Of a stretch of 34,492 bases of DNA, positions 6,125 to 28,115 are shown in pieces. The translations under genes were made by a program, and so were the position numbers. The notes beneath the pieces were generated by a model. The model was not told the DNA's origin. It searched no databases and worked only from the letters and a program-made list of their open reading frames with translations. The stretch's first letter is position 1. Every line of letters starts with the position of its first letter. Origin of the DNA: an uncultured archaeon (lineage in GTDB: Archaea; Aenigmatarchaeota; Aenigmatarchaeia; GW2011-AR5); assembly GCA_964372695.1 (NCBI GenBank), contig CAYJRV010000001.1, forward strand, positions 1 to 34,492. Direction: 5' to 3'.

Positions 6125-6651
6125 GTCAGATCAAAAACCTCCAGGTCCTCATGGAGCGGCCCGTGCTTCGTGAGCGTGGATTTCTTCAGCCTGATTTTGT
6201 CAGCGAGAAAGCTGCCAAATTCTTCATCATGGTGCCTGCCGGCGAAAGCCTGCAGCTGCTTGTTGTAAATCTGCGATCTTACCCTGGCCAGCGTAAGATG
6301 CGGGACAGGCTTCTCCTTTGGGAGCATGTCAGCAAGCAACTCATTTACAGCTATATGCAGGTTGAGGAATTGCTCTGACTCAGCGCCTGCCCAGACAACG
6401 CGGATGAAGCTGCTGCTTGGGAAGAAGCCGATACTCTTCAGAAGGACGGTAAACTGGCCGGTCTTAATGTTTCCAACTCTCTTCACGACAGACTTCGTTT
6501 TTTCTTCATCCAGTTCACCTAGGAACTTCAGCGTGAAGTGCAGGTTTTCCTTTTCAACGGGCTTGGCATCGAGCCCGGTGAGTTCCTGCTGCAGTTTTGA
6601 CATTCTGTTCTTAATGTCCTCAGGGACGTCAACAGCCAGGAAACAGCGCAT
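6121..6651 (-). CDS. thpR: RNA 2',3'-cyclic phosphodiesterase (2H phosphoesterase, LigT/ThpR family)
   Basis: Two HxT motifs at canonical spacing (HFTLKFLG and HLTLARV). Length is 176 aa. Confidence 0.85.
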   Translation of the reverse strand: MRCFLAVDVPEDIKNRMSKLQQELTGLDAKPVEKENLHFTLKFLGELDEEKTKSVVKRVGNIKTGQFTVLLKSIGFFPSSSFIRVVWAGAESEQFLNLHIAVNELLADMLPKEKPVPHLTLARVRSQIYNKQLQAFAGRHHDEEFGSFLADKIRLKKSTLTKHGPLHEDLEVFDLT

Positions 6652-6804: not shown

Positions 6805-7107
6805 ATGGGCAGGAAGAAAGGCTTTGACGAGAAGAAGATTTTGTCCATTGTACAAGTCCTTCTGGCGAATCAGGACGGCATCTGGCTGCGCCAGATAGCC
6901 AAGGAAACCCGGCTTTCCCCGGCCACAGTAGGCAAATACCTGGATACAGCGCTAAAGCCGCTTGTTGAGGAGAGTTCCCTGGGCCGGTCAGAAAAGCCGC
7001 TGCTCCGCGTTGTCAGGCTCAAGCCCTTTGTTATTGAGAGGCTTCAGGAGGGCAAGACTCTTGCCGACATCATGAAAATTCTGCGTCTGGTGAGCAAAAT
7101 TAGCTGA
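6805..7107 (+). CDS. Small winged-helix DNA-binding protein
   Basis: HTH-like stretch LRQIAKETRLSPATVGKYL, 100 aa. An AGGTG Shine-Dalgarno-like box lies upstream of the ATG. Confidence 0.55.
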   Translation: MGRKKGFDEKKILSIVQVLLANQDGIWLRQIAKETRLSPATVGKYLDTALKPLVEESSLGRSEKPLLRVVRLKPFVIERLQEGKTLADIMKILRLVSKIS

Positions 7108-7680
7108 CTTTTATGATATTAAAACGACTAAATTTAGCTTTTTCTAGCCTAAAATGGTTAAAAATAGACTATTTTACCAAATTTATTAAATTTAATAAGA
7201 AAATTTTATAGAAAAGTATTATTTAGTGCTCACGAAAACTATTAACTAGCTCACTAAAAAACATCAAATTCACGAAGTGCTCATGAATATCACGTGAACT
7301 TAATGAATATTCATCAAAATTTTCATGAATATCATATGAATATTCATTTTTAGACTCACACTTTATGAATACCCACAACATCAGAAAATAGCAACACTCA
7401 CATTTTCCTCACTATTCACAGAATCCTTCACTTTTACTTCATAAACCTTCATAAAATGTTCATAAACCCTTCATAAAACCTTCACGTAGTTCATCAAATT
7501 TTTCTATGAATTCACGTGAAATTCATATGAAAGATAATAAAAAAGATCAATTTTAATATATATTCACAATAAAATTTATATTTTTATGAACATCTAGACA
7601 AAGAACCTAAATATTCTGTGAATAGATATGAACTTAAAAACATAAATGCTTTAATACTCTGTTATACAAATATAGTGAGC
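7108..7680. other. AT-rich, repeat-dense non-coding field; candidate replication origin or large regulatory region
   Basis: About 570 bp without an ORF and visibly far more AT-rich than its surroundings. It contains roughly twenty TCAY cores, two copies of the 12-bp palindrome ATGAATATTCAT (7303-7314, 7336-7347) and the palindromes TCACGTGA (7290-7297) and TTCACGTGAA (7511-7520). It lies directly upstream of an AAA+/winged-helix gene. Confidence 0.45.
7415..7529. repeat. Helically phased array of TTCAY(A/G)NA units
   Basis: TTCA(C/T) units start at 7415, 7427, 7438, 7448, 7459, 7470, 7481 and 7490, giving intervals of 12, 11, 10, 11, 11, 11 and 9 bp. Two more start at 7511 and 7522. Four consecutive units are exact TTCATAAA. 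Confidence 0.8.
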
Positions 7681-8871
7681 ATGGAAGACGACATGGCTAG
7701 CAATGAAAACAAACCTTCAGAAGAACCAATTAAAGCAGAGCAATTTACTCCTGGTATAGCCAGTAATGATAACATTGTTATAGAAGAAAAACAAGAACCG
7801 CAACAGGAACTGCCCAAAAAAAAGCTGACAGTCGCCGAATGGTTCTCGGAGATGCACTGGACCGGCAATCCTTTCACGTTTTCTATCATTCCTGATCTGT
7901 TCGTCGGCTACAGGCGCCAGGTTGAGCGCCTGCTCATGGCCCTCGAGGAAAGACATAAGTTTGTCTATTTGGCCGGGCCCACAGGCTCAGGAAAGACCAC
8001 AATGTTGAAGTGGATTTCCGAGCAGATGCCCAAAGAATTCGACGTTCTCTATATCGCAAAGCCGCCAGAGCGCCCTGAACAGTTCATAGACATCTTCAAG
8101 GCGAGATACAGGAAGTCCTGGTTTGCCTTCTGGGTCTCTAACATGAGAAATATCTATGAGATTCCCGATCACCTTAATGAAAAATTAAAGGGAAAGCATC
8201 TTGTCGTCATGTTCGACGAAGCCCACGAGAGCGAGATCGAGGTTCTGGAATGGCTGCGCGTGCTCAGCGACCAGGTGGACAACATGTCCGTTCTGCTCTC
8301 GGGACTTCCTGTATTTGAAAATCATCTGAAGGACAAGCTGGAGACTTTCCGCAGGCGCATCGCCGCAAAAATAGAGCTTGTATCCCTCACAAAGGAAGAA
8401 ATGCAGTCGATGATAAGAAAAAGAATTCAGCACGTTGGCGGCTCTGGCAGCGAATTCTCGCCAGAGCTCATGGATTTCATCTATGCGCAGTCAGGCGGCT
8501 TCCCGCGCGAGGTGCTGCGCATCTGCGACGAGCTTGTGAACCAGGCGATTCTTGCAGGAACAAAGGAATTCGCGACAGCGCCGGCGGCGCAGGAAGAGGT
8601 TGCATCACAAATCTCCCTGAGCATTATAGACGACATGACGCCGATGCAGAAGGAGATTATCGAGTTGCTTACAAAGAGCCCCATGTCGCCCGGAGACATC
8701 GCGAACTCCATAGACCTCCAGAAGTACAAGTCCCGCCAGCACGCAGTGCGCAGCATGAACAACATCATGAAGCGCCTCTACGAGGACGGATACCTCGAGC
8801 GCAGGCGCTCGGACAAGGCATACATATACTCGCTGTCGGGCAAGCTGCGCACCATCGTTGTCAAGGCCTGA
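7681..8871 (+). CDS. AAA+ ATPase with C-terminal winged helix; Orc1/Cdc6-like architecture, with ExeA/AAA_22-like features
   Basis: Walker A GPTGSGKT and Walker B LVVMFDEAH. Sensor-like regions SVLLSGLP and GGFPREVLRICDELV. C-terminal wHTH (MQKEIIELLTKSPMSPGDIANSI...YLERRR). The track start at 7618 is GTG, so the first ATG at 7681 is used. The N-terminal ~75 aa are polar and low-complexity. Confidence 0.6.
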   Translation: MEDDMASNENKPSEEPIKAEQFTPGIASNDNIVIEEKQEPQQELPKKKLTVAEWFSEMHWTGNPFTFSIIPDLFVGYRRQVERLLMALEERHKFVYLAGPTGSGKTTMLKWISEQMPKEFDVLYIAKPPERPEQFIDIFKARYRKSWFAFWVSNMRNIYEIPDHLNEKLKGKHLVVMFDEAHESEIEVLEWLRVLSDQVDNMSVLLSGLPVFENHLKDKLETFRRRIAAKIELVSLTKEEMQSMIRKRIQHVGGSGSEFSPELMDFIYAQSGGFPREVLRICDELVNQAILAGTKEFATAPAAQEEVASQISLSIIDDMTPMQKEIIELLTKSPMSPGDIANSIDLQKYKSRQHAVRSMNNIMKRLYEDGYLERRRSDKAYIYSLSGKLRTIVVKA

Positions 8872-9024
8872 CCATCTCTCACATAAGAAAACCGGAAAAC
8901 AGTAGAGCATCAGATGTAATTCCTGCGTAATTGAATAGCTGGCAAGGACTTCTGCCTTCGGCACCAAACAAATTATTTAAGCATGCATCCGCAATTAATA
9001 GCAGTAACATCAAAGGTGATAAAA

Positions 9025-9279
9025 ATGATGAGCAGGGGAAAGGACGTTATCGGAAAGGTCATAGTTTCCGAGGAAACAGGCAGGAAGTTCGGCGTTGTCG
9101 GCGACATGAACTTCGTCTCCGAGAGCGGCGAGCTTCTCAACCTGGTCCTCGTCGAGCCGACGAAGCACATCGGCGACCTCACGCTTGAGAAAGACGAGCA
9201 GAACCGCCTCCTTATCCCGTTTTCCAGCGTAAAGAGCGTCGGCGACTTCGTGATAATCTCCGAGAAGGAGATCGTTTAG
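9025..9279 (+). CDS. PRC-barrel domain protein
   Basis: The pattern GKDVIGKVIVSEETGRKFGVVGDMNFVSESGELLNLVLV...LLIPFSSVKSVGDFVII is typical of small archaeal PRC-barrel proteins. A GGTGAT box lies 5 nt upstream of the ATG at 9025. Confidence 0.75.
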   Translation: MMSRGKDVIGKVIVSEETGRKFGVVGDMNFVSESGELLNLVLVEPTKHIGDLTLEKDEQNRLLIPFSSVKSVGDFVIISEKEIV

Positions 9280-9726: not shown

Positions 9727-10754
9727 TCCTCAACACCCTTCTCCGTGAGCTTGAAGACCGCTTCGCCTTCCGGCAGGTTCGGGCTGTCTATGAGCCTTGC
9801 TATTCTCGTGTTGGCCTTGCTTTTCCGGAGGTACATCCGAAAAGTGCTCATGTGGCCGATGATATGGCCACCGACGTGTGTTGTGGGGTCGCCGAACATG
9901 ACGTCCGGCCTTGCCATCACCTGGTTGGTCATGTAGACAGCAACATTATGTGTATCTGCCAATTTCTGCAAAGCGTGCATGTGCCTGTTCAGCTTCTGCT
10001 GCCTCGGAGCCAGCTCGCCCCTGCCCGAATAGTCGCTGCGGAAGTGAGACATCATCGAGTCAATTATTATAAGCTTTACATTATTGTTTTGAATGAGCTC
10101 TTTCGCTTTCTCCGCGAGTACGATCTGGTGATCCGAATTATATGCCTTCGCGACAAAGATGTTCTTCAGCACCTTTTCCGGATCAAGCCCCTTTGCCTCA
10201 GCAAGTTGTATTATGCGCTCCGGGCGGAATGTGGATTCCGTATCTATTATCAGGCATGCACCGTCTAGGCCGCCCTCGCTTTTCGGCATCTGGACGTTCA
10301 CAGCTAGCTGGAATCCTATCTGCGATTTTCCCGAGCCGAAAGCCCCGAAAGCCTCCGTTATTGCCTGTGTCTCCACGCCGCCGCCAAGCAGGGCGTCAAG
10401 GCTCTGGGAGCTTGTTGTTATTTTCCCGATTTCCTTCCTTTTTTCCATGACGTCGGCGGCGGTCTTGAAGCCCATGTCCAGGACCTGCCTTGCGGCCTGC
10501 ACGATCTTCTCGGCTGTCGCTTCGCCGATCTCGCATGCAGCCGCGACCTCGCCAGCGCTTGCTGCCGCTATGGACATGAGCTCGACATAGCCGGCTTCCC
10601 TGAGCTTCTGCGCGCCCTTTGGCCCTATGCCTGGCAGATCTTCAATAGTAAGGTCATCTGTATCTTTTTTCTTTTTCTCTGTTACAACAATATCTGCCTC
10701 TTCCATCTGCGCAAGCTCTTCCTCAGGCGTCGGTTTCTTCTTAAATCGTGGCAT
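9723..10754 (-). CDS. radA: DNA repair and recombination protein RadA
   Basis: N-terminal HhH domain ([20 protein letters not shown]), Walker [10 protein letters not shown] and Walker B LIIIDS. A GGAGTGAT box precedes the ATG at 10754, and the upstream in-frame extension is rejected. Confidence 0.95.
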
Positions 10755-13034: not shown

Positions 13035-13277
13035 TTATCGTTTCCTCTTTGCCGATCTGCGGGCCATTGATATTGTTAGTAATGCCAGCGAAAGGATAAG
13101 TATTATAAGTCCGGCAGCTAACGTTGCAGCATCAGAAACTTTAGAGCATGTATTGCAATTCGGGTTTGTTTCCGGGCATGCAATTTTTGTGCAGACCTCG
13201 CTCTGGTAAACAAAGGAATATGCAACTAGAATCAGCCCCAACACAATACCTGCATATGCAAAATATGCGTAATTCAT
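13035..13277 (-). CDS. Small two-TM membrane protein with a Cys-rich loop
   Basis: TM1 is YAGIVLGLILVAYSFV and TM2 is LAAGLIILILSLALLTI, with the loop CTKIACPETNPNCNTC between them and a basic tail. The stop lies 2 nt before the histone start. Confidence 0.6.
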   Translation of the reverse strand: MNYAYFAYAGIVLGLILVAYSFVYQSEVCTKIACPETNPNCNTCSKVSDAATLAAGLIILILSLALLTISMARRSAKRKR

Positions 13278-13620
13278 ACCTTCCAGTAAATGTATTGCTT
13301 TTCCGTGTATTAATGTCTTTGTTTATTGTAGGGTCTGAAAGCATGCTTTTCTTATCGGCTCTGGTTTTTGATGCCCATATTTATTAACGCAACGCGCGAG
13401 ACTTCATTTATTGCCGCCAAAAAATACTACAGGAAATATATGTTATTTAAGCTTTCATGTAATATATATTTTAATAGCAACAATTGGTACCAAAAACACA
13501 CTATATAAAAGATGTTTTATAATATATATTATATAAAAGATATTTTTCAGCCATGCATCTCTCACATCGGAAAATCAAAAACATATTTATACCCGGAAAT
13601 CTAAGTAAGAGCAGATAAGA

Positions 13621-15887: not shown

Positions 15888-15993
15888 CTTCTTCCTCTTT
15901 TTACCAACATTTCTTTTGTTAGAGATGGAGCCTGCCCAATGGGCGAAGAGATGCCGCGACAGAAATATATATTTCCTGTAAGTAATTTTATAT

Positions 15994-16174
15994 AATATAT
16001 TTCTAGAAGAATTTTATCAAATAAGTATTTTTAATAATATATTTTGAAGATACAATTTCTTTTGTGAGGGTTTGGGGTCAAAAATGTGCTGCAGAATATA
16101 TTTTAAAACAGAGTCTTTATATTATATATGATAAAAAATATATTTTTTAGAAGTCACACCCGTTTGTGAGGGTT
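15994..16174 (+). repeat. Repeated TATA-like modules (AATATATTTY x4); two are followed at 25-26 nt by TTTGTGAGGGTT
   Basis: AATATATTT(T/C) occurs at 15994, 16036, 16095 and 16137. TTTGTGAGGGTT occurs at 16061-16072 and 16163-16174. The region lies between the 3' ends of two convergent genes. Confidence 0.6.
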
Positions 16175-16322
16175 CAAGCAGATGACTATATTGTATTATC
16201 TTATATCATAAAAAGCCTAGGGAGACCCTTTCTATCGTCCTTCGTATGAGGTAACGGCATACACAAGCATTGCTTGCAAACCTGCTTCAACAAAAAGAAA
16301 AATACAAGAAAAAGACAAAAGC

Positions 16323-27035: not shown

Positions 27036-28115
27036 TTACCGTTCAATAAAATCTATCCCAAAAATCTTCTCCGATTCTTTCTTCCTTTCTCTCTGCATAG
27101 AAACCGGTTTCGTGAACGGGGAGGATTTTATCCCTGTAACTATCAGCATAGTTCTTACGGAGTCGCCTAGTTCCTTCACTATCTGGGCTCCCCAGATTAT
27201 TTTTGCGTCTGGGTTCAGCCTTGTTGCCACGGCTTCCACAATCTTCTGGCATTCTCTTATTGTTATGTCTACGCCTCCTGAGACGTTGATTAATGCACCA
27301 TTGGCGCCGTCGATTGACACGTCAAGAAGCGGGTTGTTAAGCGCCCTTTCCACAGCTTCGACAGCGCGGTTCTCGCTGTCGCTGTCCCCCATGCCAATCA
27401 TGGCAATGCCGCCATTCGTCATTACAGCTCGTATGTCGGCGAAATCCAGGTTAACTAAGCCTGGTCTTGTCACGAGTTCTGTTATTCCTTTCACGGCATT
27501 TACAAGAATTTCGTCCGCGACCTTGAAAGCCGTGGCAAGGGATACATCCGGAACTATCTCGAGCAGCTTGTCATTTGGTATAACTATCAGTGTGTCCACG
27601 TTCTTTTCCAGCCTCTCGAGACCGCCACGCGCATTGTCCATCCTGCTTTTTCCTTCCATGCTAAAAGGCAGCGTCACTATCCCCACAGTCAGCGCGCCAG
27701 CCTTTTTTGCTATGTCTGCAACTACCGGAGCCGAGCCCGTCCCGGTCCCGCCACCAAGGCCGCATGTAACGAATACGAGATCGCAGTTCTCCAGGACTTT
27801 CTTCAGGTCGTTCTTGCTCTCCTTTGCAGATTCCTCTCCTATGCGGGGATCTGCGCCAGCTCCCAGGCCGCCTGTTATCTCCTTTCCTATGAGTATCTTG
27901 ATGTCGGCATCCGTGTACAGGAGGTCCTGCGCATCCGTGTTGATTGCTATGGCTTCCGCACCCACTATGCCGACCTGCATTAAGCGAGAAATAGTGTTTC
28001 CGCCGGCTCCGCCGCAGCCTATGACCTTTATCTCCGCCTTCTTCGATTCCAGTATCTTTCTAAGCTCTTCATCTGCCGGAGAAGTACCGGCTTCCTTACC
28101 AGTTAGAATACCCAT
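27036..28115 (-). CDS. ftsZ: Cell division GTPase FtsZ
   Basis: GCGGAGGNTISRL, the tubulin signature GLGGGTGTGSAPVVA, and the T7 loop region NLDFADI. Confidence 0.95.
   Translation of the reverse strand: MGILTGKEAGTSPADEELRKILESKKAEIKVIGCGGAGGNTISRLMQVGIVGAEAIAINTDAQDLLYTDADIKILIGKEITGGLGAGADPRIGEESAKESKNDLKKVLENCDLVFVTCGLGGGTGTGSAPVVADIAKKAGALTVGIVTLPFSMEGKSRMDNARGGLERLEKNVDTLIVIPNDKLLEIVPDVSLATAFKVADEILVNAVKGITELVTRPGLVNLDFADIRAVMTNGGIAMIGMGDSDSENRAVEAVERALNNPLLDVSIDGANGALINVSGGVDITIRECQKIVEAVATRLNPDAKIIWGAQIVKELGDSVRTMLIVTGIKSSPFTKPVSMQRERKKESEKIFGIDFIER

Follow-up and report, generated by a model that had tools for sequence, protein, structure and literature searches.

A clade-wide, helically phased TTCAY repeat field beside an Orc1/Cdc6-shaped ATPase gene in Aenigmarchaeota: a plausible origin-like element

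Anatomy of the repeat field

The element described here is a field of short TTCAY repeats, occurring in both orientations (TTCAY and RTGAA) and spaced about one helical turn apart, that fills much of positions 7108-7680 in a 34,492-nucleotide stretch of archaeal DNA (contig CAYJRV010000001.1, hereafter 'the window'). Two protein-coding genes enclose the field exactly. On the left, the gap begins at the stop codon of a gene for a 100-amino-acid winged-helix protein (HTH100; 6805-7107, plus strand), and on the right it ends at the start codon of a gene for a 396-amino-acid AAA+ ATPase (7681-8871, plus strand), whose start has been corrected to the ATG at 7681 rather than the GTG at 7618. The guanine-plus-cytosine (GC) content of this non-coding gap is 0.248, compared with 0.466 for the whole contig. 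A preliminary description of the locus had called it the longest non-coding and most AT-rich stretch in the window, and indeed no other 573-bp window of the contig has a lower GC content, and no longer stretch of it is free of open reading frames of at least 60 amino acids.

Fifteen TTCAY and 12 RTGAA sites are present in the gap, for a total of 27 sites (47 per kb), whereas the rest of the contig carries 5.8 per kb. The preliminary description had put the family, by eye, at roughly twenty copies. Among 2000 dinucleotide-preserving shuffles of region 7108-7680, the mean number of sites is 5.3 (standard deviation 2.2) and the maximum is 14. As for the phasing, 15 same-orientation pairs are separated by 9-12 bp, compared with a mean of 0.09 and a maximum of 2 in the shuffles. 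The phased, non-coding array first noticed by eye is therefore real, and the positions and motifs assigned to it at that time prove correct to the base.

The most regular portion of the field, array B (7415-7494, plus strand), is composed of eight direct TTCAY units with a consensus of roughly AAC-TTCAY-RWA. These units start at 7415, 7427, 7438, 7448, 7459, 7470, 7481 and 7490, which corresponds to intervals of 12, 11, 10, 11, 11, 11 and 9 bp. Four of them (starts 7438, 7448, 7459 and 7470) are copies of TTCATAAA, and Tandem Repeats Finder reports an 11-bp period across 7437-7484. Two further TTCAY units follow beyond the array, at 7511 and 7522. As judged from its phased A-tracts, array B is expected to be intrinsically curved.

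Upstream of this array lies array A (7269-7369), with ten sites that are mainly RTGAA, the palindromes ATGAATATTCAT (7303 and 7336) and TCACGTGA (7290), and a 21-bp period detected by Tandem Repeats Finder across 7281-7347. The spacer between arrays A and B (7355-7412, plus strand) carries CTCAC(A) boxes at 7355-7360, 7397-7402 and 7408-7412 that are one base off the motif, and a 'ACTCACATTTT' box is kept across loci. The leftmost part of the gap is an AT-rich segment (7108-7268) that has no TTCAY or RTGAA site and only two TCAC cores (7230 and 7251), and the 40 bp with the lowest GC content in the gap (0.07) lie within it.

Downstream of array B, the forward array meets reverse-oriented sites at the junction palindromes ATGAATTCACGTGAAATTCATATGAA (7506-7531), which include TTCACGTGAA at 7511 and a second copy of TCACGTGA at 7512. 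A very AT-rich stretch (7533-7585) with a lone TTCAC (7563) comes next. Among related loci the least stable DNA tends to fall in three places, and this stretch is one of them (minimum dGC +120 to +149). Array C (7586-7632, minus strand), with RTGAA at 7586, 7618 and 7628, sits just 5ʹ of the promoter. The TATA-like box TTTAATAC (7650-7657, plus strand), as read from the sequence, lies 24-31 nt ahead of the ATG, a position that would give rise to a leaderless or near-leaderless mRNA. The block 'TTTAATACTCTGTTATACAA' at this box is conserved in one of the orthologous loci (L008).

Conservation across core Aenigmarchaeota

Orthologous loci came from two sources, exact-protein look-ups (L008 and L009) and a scan of metagenome contigs with the winged-helix domain as query, which yielded 48 loci. 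Wherever a core-clade locus has usable DNA ahead of the orthologous AAA+ gene, a strong motif cluster is present there. In 35 of the 36 core-clade loci measured, the upstream gap spans 360-780 bp and contains 35-70 sites per kb, compared with a background of 5-12 per kb. The start of the gene had been miscalled in the remaining locus (L022), and the motif cluster is present there too. Conservation of the field within the core clade extends to a protein identity of 44%. The suggestion that the array would be conserved beside AAA+ orthologues consequently holds for every core-clade locus examined, but it does not extend to the sister-lineage orthologues, which have no field.

De novo k-mer counts in 33 loci recovered the same motif family, with TTCAC enriched 13-fold and TTCACG 28-fold (each in 32-33 of the 33), and with CACGTGA enriched 87-fold in the gaps. 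Same-orientation spacings among the 958 sites of 33 loci are dominated by 11 bp (276 pairs), followed by 10 bp (129), 9 bp (75) and 12 bp (62), and harmonics appear near 21, 31 and 41 bp. The order of parts is conserved as well: array A (RTGAA) is followed by the spacer, array B (TTCAY), palindromes such as TTCACGTGAA, array C, the TATA-like box and the ATG. In the pooled profile the spacer is about 90 bp long and motif-poor, has a GC content about 10% under the locus average, and carries CTCACA boxes. Across loci, array B comprises 6-8 direct TTCAY units and array C is a looser set of RTGAA sites, with the TATA-like box about 30 nt before the ATG. An RTGAA array equivalent to array A occupies positions -240 to -91 in 28 aligned loci. 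Core-clade fields contain 27-47 sites spread over 400-500 bp, most of which are more than 150 bp from the promoter. In contig JACPJW010000001.1 (918,042 bp), the field is found at about 375,632-375,994, and the long JGI contigs Ga0209514_10000031, Ga0315289_10000006 and Ga0066345_12 carry it as well.

The field is also unique within the roughly 0.5 Mb of DNA surveyed. No other strong TTCAY cluster exists in the 34-kb contig, and the 507 kb of related loci contain only two weak ones (in L038 and L040) plus the case of L001, a divergent locus considered below. The promoters of RadA, RPA and other genes of the contig carry no phased sites, and a regulon was rejected as an explanation on this basis. 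That the field is unique in the surveyed DNA likewise argues against an ordinary regulon.

Flanking proteins and gene neighbourhood

Two proteins encoded beside the field are candidates for binding its repeats. The first is the AAA+ ATPase, which has a lid, a C-terminal winged helix, a Walker A motif (GPTGSGKT), a Walker B motif (DEAHE) and the sequence GGFPRE. All three of these motifs are invariant among 32 aligned orthologues, as is the winged-helix helix KYKSRQHAVRSxNN. The AlphaFold 2 model (predicted local distance difference test score, pLDDT, 80) consists of an AAA+ base, a lid and a C-terminal winged helix. Its best full-length Foldseek matches are 1w5t, 1fnn, 2qby_A, 2v1u and eukaryotic ORC/Cdc6 proteins, with expectation values (E) of 1e-12 to 1e-9, alignments of 370-410 columns and template-modelling (TM) scores of about 0.47. 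The archaeal ATPases 2qen and 2fna follow close behind, and TnsC matches the ATPase core alone (target-normalised TM 0.70). With regard to the initiator-specific motif of Orc1/Cdc6, an extra helix between beta2 and beta3, the model by itself shows helices 134-142 and 158-169 between strands 120-125 and 173-178.

By sequence, the affinities of the ATPase are different. It matches AAA_22 (E 1e-13), and the best curated model is the ExeA-like TIGR03015 (E 2e-25); its 89.5 bits are far under the cutoff of 324.5 bits for that model, so that it does not qualify as a member of the equivalog. Bacterial ExeA-like proteins are detectable via tblastn, whereas sequence and profile searches of PDB reach Orc1/Cdc6 at the P-loop only. 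When ten wider relatives were scanned against NCBIfam, one distant protein (P0219) gave a faint match of 22 bits to TIGR02928, the orc1/cdc6 model. The protein resembles ExeA/GspA, TniB and TnsC in being an AAA_22 ATPase, in its best sequence models and in its N-terminal NPF...VGY lead-in. Unlike these ATPases, it has no membrane or peptidoglycan-binding part, has a C-terminal winged helix, is archaeal and is encoded among replication genes (its neighbours are RadA, RPA, LigT and an OB-fold protein). Genes for transposition or secretion are absent from its surroundings.

When 1.8 billion representative proteins were searched with a profile, the ATPase proved to belong to a wider family of AAA_22 plus winged-helix proteins of about 330-370 amino acids. 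Source-named homologues of the ATPase itself are labelled Candidatus Aenigmarchaeota (DPANN), and many are encoded on contigs 100-918 kb long. No member of the family is present in IMG/VR. A five-unit DNA pattern of the field, when sought on viral contigs, matched unrelated tandem repeats and is uninformative. The possibility of an anti-phage defence ATPase was rejected, since PADLOC defence models produced only P-loop-level matches of at most 22 bits, which we regard as noise.

The second candidate is HTH100, which begins with a basic arm (MGRKKGF) and matches the Pfam family HTH_7 (E 3e-5). We identified 74 homologues, and the few with a named source are from Aenigmarchaeota. Its AlphaFold 2 model (pLDDT 81) is a winged helix-turn-helix (wHTH) with a beta-hairpin wing, for which Foldseek returned weak matches to small regulators of the MarR/ArsR type. 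In the core clade, the HTH100 gene always borders the left side of the field.

The wider gene order in the core clade is LigT (minus strand), OB-fold (minus), HTH100 (plus), the field, AAA+ (plus), PRC-barrel (plus), RadA (minus) and RPA (minus). In every lineage, the AAA+ family has replication and repair genes among its neighbours, namely RadA and RPA, PolB, PCNA or TopoVI-A. The contig encodes RadA, RPA, AlaRS, LeuRS, L1, L10, Spt5, FtsZ, an M1 peptidase, phosphoglucomutase and LigT, and it is part of an archaeal core chromosome rather than a mobile element. The 98-amino-acid PRC-barrel protein encoded directly downstream of the ATPase gene (8983-9279, plus strand) is the most conserved neighbour, with 70-96% identity across loci in which RadA has 63-88%. 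It may be a cell-division protein of the CdpB type. The FtsZ gene is located at 27036-28115 (minus strand).

A possible replication origin and its alternatives

Comparison across loci has confirmed and greatly strengthened the initial observation of the repeat field, an origin-like iteron field with a non-canonical partner, and an origin is a plausible reading of it. The field is a conserved chromosomal site at which protein loading is predicted. Of the functions considered, that of the replication origin of the core Aenigmarchaeota clade is the most likely, and we propose it tentatively. Points in its favour are the excess and phasing of the sites, the inverted arrangement around AT-rich DNA, the unique and clade-wide occurrence of the field, a gap length that would be costly to keep, the chromosomal setting, the neighbouring replication and repair genes, and the Orc1/Cdc6-like fold and invariant SRQHAVRS helix of the ATPase. 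The more specific proposal of a non-ORB origin, in which a DnaA-box-like, 11-bp-phased TTCACG field is served by a lineage-specific, non-canonical initiator (the ExeA-type AAA+ protein or HTH100), is possible but somewhat doubtful.

In the proposed mechanism, about 27 half-sites (TTCAY, or TTCACG clade-wide), which are distributed over three arrays and repeat every 11 bp on one face of the helix, would nucleate the cooperative assembly of a site-specific winged-helix protein into a filament-like structure. AT-rich DNA that is easily melted would lie between the inverted arrays A and B/C. The bound protein might be the Orc1/Cdc6-shaped ATPase, perhaps aided by HTH100, or it might be HTH100 itself. 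The position of array C beside the TATA box could also let the complex control the ATPase gene. The sites with their phasing, arrangement, conservation and uniqueness within about 0.5 Mb, and the fold of the ATPase, are established, whereas the identity of the binder, its oligomerisation, DNA melting and origin activity are the parts of this scheme that we infer.

Archaeal origins typically have initiator sites in opposite orientations on either side of a DNA unwinding element (DUE), beside the gene for the initiator. The same anatomy can be read from the sequence at this locus, where inverted repeats surround AT-rich DNA beside an initiator-like gene. In its way of working, the closest known system would be the archaeal oriC of Pyrococcus, Sulfolobus and Methanothermobacter, with its origin recognition boxes (ORB or mini-ORB) beside orc1/cdc6. 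Shared traits include a long AT-rich intergenic region directly 5ʹ of an AAA+ winged-helix gene, inverted groups of short repeats, and a unique field that resides among replication genes. Traits that set the Aenigmarchaeota field apart are its TTCAY/TTCACG motif, its strict 11-bp phasing, its 27-47 copies and an ATPase that fails the Orc1/Cdc6 models.

A second parallel is found in bacteria, where DnaA boxes are 9-mers that, when separated by 2 bp, have an 11-bp pitch and template a filament of the AAA+ protein DnaA. The archaeal field likewise has a site in each helical turn, runs of like orientation that point towards or away from each other, and adjoining AT-rich DNA, and the DNA-binding domain of the ATPase is joined to an AAA+ module that could oligomerise. 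DnaA belongs to a different protein family and to another domain of life, however, and the resemblance is one of analogy rather than homology.

Non-canonical pairs of origin and initiator have precedents in archaea, where some lineages have strongly diverged or replaced initiators. The oriC3-WhiP origin of Sulfolobus was probably acquired from an extrachromosomal element. Methanococcales and Methanopyrales lack canonical Cdc6/Orc1 (PMC3914693), which offers a precedent for reading the present field as an origin. The Aenigmarchaeota locus would resemble these cases as a lineage-specific, non-canonical origin-initiator pair, with a small winged-helix gene and its repeats captured as a module. 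It differs from the Sulfolobus case in that HTH100 is much smaller than WhiP. Full-text literature searches turned up neither this element nor an Aenigmarchaeota initiator or origin, nor any archaeal ExeA-like winged-helix ATPases.

A number of results weigh against an origin. The ORB/mini-ORB consensus TTCCANTGGAAA, allowed at most 2 mismatches, has 14 matches in the contig compared with 15.2 expected, and none are in 7108-7680, which upholds the initial impression that the repeats are not of this type. No origin-type switch in GC skew, AT skew or gene orientation was found within ±10 kb in 16 loci, among which shared gene order is a confounding factor. With the same confounding, the mean GC skew over these intervals goes from +0.020 left of the field to -0.015 right of it, and a strand-corrected skew, calculated by hand from coding-strand values, drops from left to right in 15 of the 16 loci. 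The 40 bp with the least GC occupy three different positions depending on the locus, and a fixed position for a DUE was rejected for this reason.

The ATPase provides further points of the same kind. The window protein has no match to TIGR02928 at E ≤ 0.01 and none to PF09079 (Cdc6_C), a family that is outside the 25 most matched by the 32 orthologues and is also missing from the first aligned orthologue's own table. The protein is thus predicted, from its model, to have the Orc1/Cdc6 fold, yet it is not a member of the Orc1/Cdc6 family by sequence. Accordingly, the Orc1/Cdc6 architecture originally assigned to it stands with regard to the AAA+ domain, lid, winged helix and best structural matches, but the sequence models point to TIGR03015 instead. 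At the sequence level, therefore, one outcome that the preliminary description had named as refuting an origin, a protein that groups outside Orc1/Cdc6, does apply. Members of the wider family are found in Nanopusillus and Nanobsidianus and in one Lokiarchaeia genome. Canonical Orc1/Cdc6 is the rule in Lokiarchaeia. In Nanobdellota, the phylum of Nanopusillus, it is reported for 206 of 208 complete genomes (bioRxiv 10.64898/2026.05.13.725050).

Sister lineages are also at odds with an origin, since their positional orthologues of the ATPase gene (L181, L183 and L179) have neither the field nor the HTH100 gene. LigT is the upstream neighbour in L183, with a gap of 34 bp before the AAA+ gene, and the OB-fold gene takes this place in L181, with a gap of 49 bp. 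In L179, a locus of the Nanopusillus type, the gap is 303 bp and contains an apparent tRNA gene. L001 (39% identity, helix DKENALRS) is ambiguous, with an 82-bp gap, no intergenic field and no HTH100 gene but a motif-rich LigT coding sequence. In addition, the field co-occurs with HTH100 as tightly as it does with the SRQHAVRS helix, and an 11-bp pitch would accommodate a 100-amino-acid wHTH protein more readily than an ATPase of 45 kDa.

The last two points bear on which protein might read the repeats. Recognition helices of the sister-lineage orthologues differ from SRQHAVRS, which is invariant in the field-bearing clade and variable outside it, and this invariance favours the ATPase. The strict co-occurrence of HTH100 and field, together with a small size that should suit the 11-bp pitch, favours HTH100. 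Co-variation between helix and motif offers no alternative motif for comparison, because relatives with other helices lack an upstream field. One locus with the helix TREHAIRS (L182) is ambiguous, as its contig breaks off where TTCAC sites, TTCACGTGAA among them, are seen.

In the core clade, the field occurs jointly with HTH100, with the fixed SRQHAVRS helix and with a disordered extension at the N terminus of the ATPase. The module appears to have arisen together with the HTH100 gene, the ATPase extension and the fixation of SRQHAVRS. Relative to L183, L001 and L181, the HTH100 gene plus the field, about 0.9 kb of sequence, has the appearance of having been inserted between LigT and the AAA+ gene, and the module may have been captured there. 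In these three loci, LigT or the OB-fold gene adjoins the AAA+ gene with gaps of 34-82 bp.

Among the alternatives to an origin, the most probable is an unusually large operator, a platform for cooperative repression or activation through which HTH100, the AAA+ protein or both would control the AAA+ gene, and perhaps the PRC-barrel gene too, with no role in replication. We consider this unlikely, though several points favour it. The field stops at the TATA box with array C adjoining the promoter, HTH100 has a MarR/ArsR-like fold, RadA and RPA are nearby, and AAA+ orthologues of sister lineages work without a field. The ATPase would then be an Orc-like regulator, a role comparable to that of Sulfolobus Orc1-2, which regulates the response to DNA damage. 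However, 27-47 sites over 400-500 bp, mostly more than 150 bp from the promoter, exceed what autoregulation would need, and the inverted arrays around the spacer are left unexplained. In five sister-lineage loci, no gap close to the orthologous gene is longer than 255 bp, which suggests that a gap of 400-780 bp is costly to keep. The lack of sites at RadA, RPA and the other promoters of the contig also counts against such control.

A less probable alternative is a centromere-like or chromosome-organising site, wherein HTH100 would coat the 11-bp iterons and the adjacent NTPase or another partner would handle the complex in segregation or in the folding of the chromosome. The plasmid site R1 parC, bound by ParR, has two sets of five 11-bp repeats around a promoter, and TubR is a wHTH protein of about 100 amino acids that binds the 12-bp iterons of tubC. 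The Aenigmarchaeota locus is similar to these systems in its order of small wHTH gene, iteron field and NTPase gene and in the clustering of 11-bp direct repeats around a promoter, such that the field could be operator and assembly site at once. Other features compatible with this function are the joint gain or loss of HTH100 and field, the uniqueness of the site, and the PRC-barrel protein and FtsZ encoded on the same contig. In contrast to parC and tubC, the field is chromosomal and clade-wide, has far more repeats, and is paired with an AAA+ protein rather than an actin-like, tubulin-like or ParA-type NTPase. Iterons and a small wHTH protein are present as in a plasmid partition cassette, but there is no ParA, ParM or TubZ-type motor and the contig is core chromosome. 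Moreover, AAA+ ATPases are not known to serve as partition motors, and this ATPase occurs in sister lineages without HTH100 or the field. Roles as origin, operator and centromere-like site need not be exclusive, given that array C adjoins the promoter.

Finally, a chance low-complexity AT spacer, a mobile-element remnant or a non-coding RNA gene might be suggested by the AT-rich, repetitive character of the region and by the insertion-like placement of HTH100 plus field relative to L001 and L183, but as sole explanations these are effectively refuted and extremely improbable: shuffle controls rule out chance; motif, phasing and architecture are kept down to 44% protein identity; conserved gene order, chromosomal context and absence of the AAA+ family from viral contigs speak against a mobile remnant; no Rfam family or tRNA was found in 7108-7680, the only Rfam family of the contig, one tRNA-Leu, being far from the region; and the 11-bp period excludes coding.

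In most DPANN lineages, the initiation and control of replication cannot yet be studied in culture. The present locus supplies a sharply defined, clade-wide cis element and two candidate proteins that might bind it. If the field is an origin, then the pairing of Orc1/Cdc6 with ORB elements would have been replaced or supplemented in another archaeal lineage, and this lineage would have converged on the bacterial arrangement, in which each helical turn holds one site. A non-ORB origin with a non-canonical initiator, if true, would be a third case in which the standard archaeal pairing of initiator and origin has independently been abandoned. If the field is not an origin, a phased nucleoprotein platform of such unusual size, in a genome subject to strong reduction, would still call for an explanation. 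The motif field could also mark the origin, or serve as a landmark, when Aenigmarchaeota assemblies are rotated and checked.

Several minor observations were made at related sites. In L179, an apparent tRNA gene (9875-9947, minus strand) lies where the repeats would be, with PolB and RtcB upstream. The LigT coding sequence of L001 (CP070662.1, 9334-9870) contains 18 TTCAY/RTGAA sites, 12 of which are TTCAC, with spacings of 9-11 bp. This density of 33 per kb compares with about 9 per kb (about 5 sites each) in 28 other LigT genes, and a repeat field may overlap the LigT coding sequence in this locus. The weaker clusters of the same motif in L038 (777-1408) and L040 (3796-4094) have 14-20 sites and are about 2 kb upstream of the main field, and that of L038 overlaps LigT. 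Within the window, a small group of four TTCAY/RTGAA sites (6482-6541) lies towards the 5ʹ end of the coding sequence of LigT, a minus-strand gene. A conserved coding motif is suspected to explain part of this group, which may be tied to the observations in L001 and L038. Elsewhere in the window, two AT-rich gaps without the TTCAY motif (13210-13586 and 15888-16269; GC 0.31) carry short tandem repeats of their own, with three copies of a 14-bp unit at 13504-13546 and two copies of a 26-bp unit at 15967-16023.

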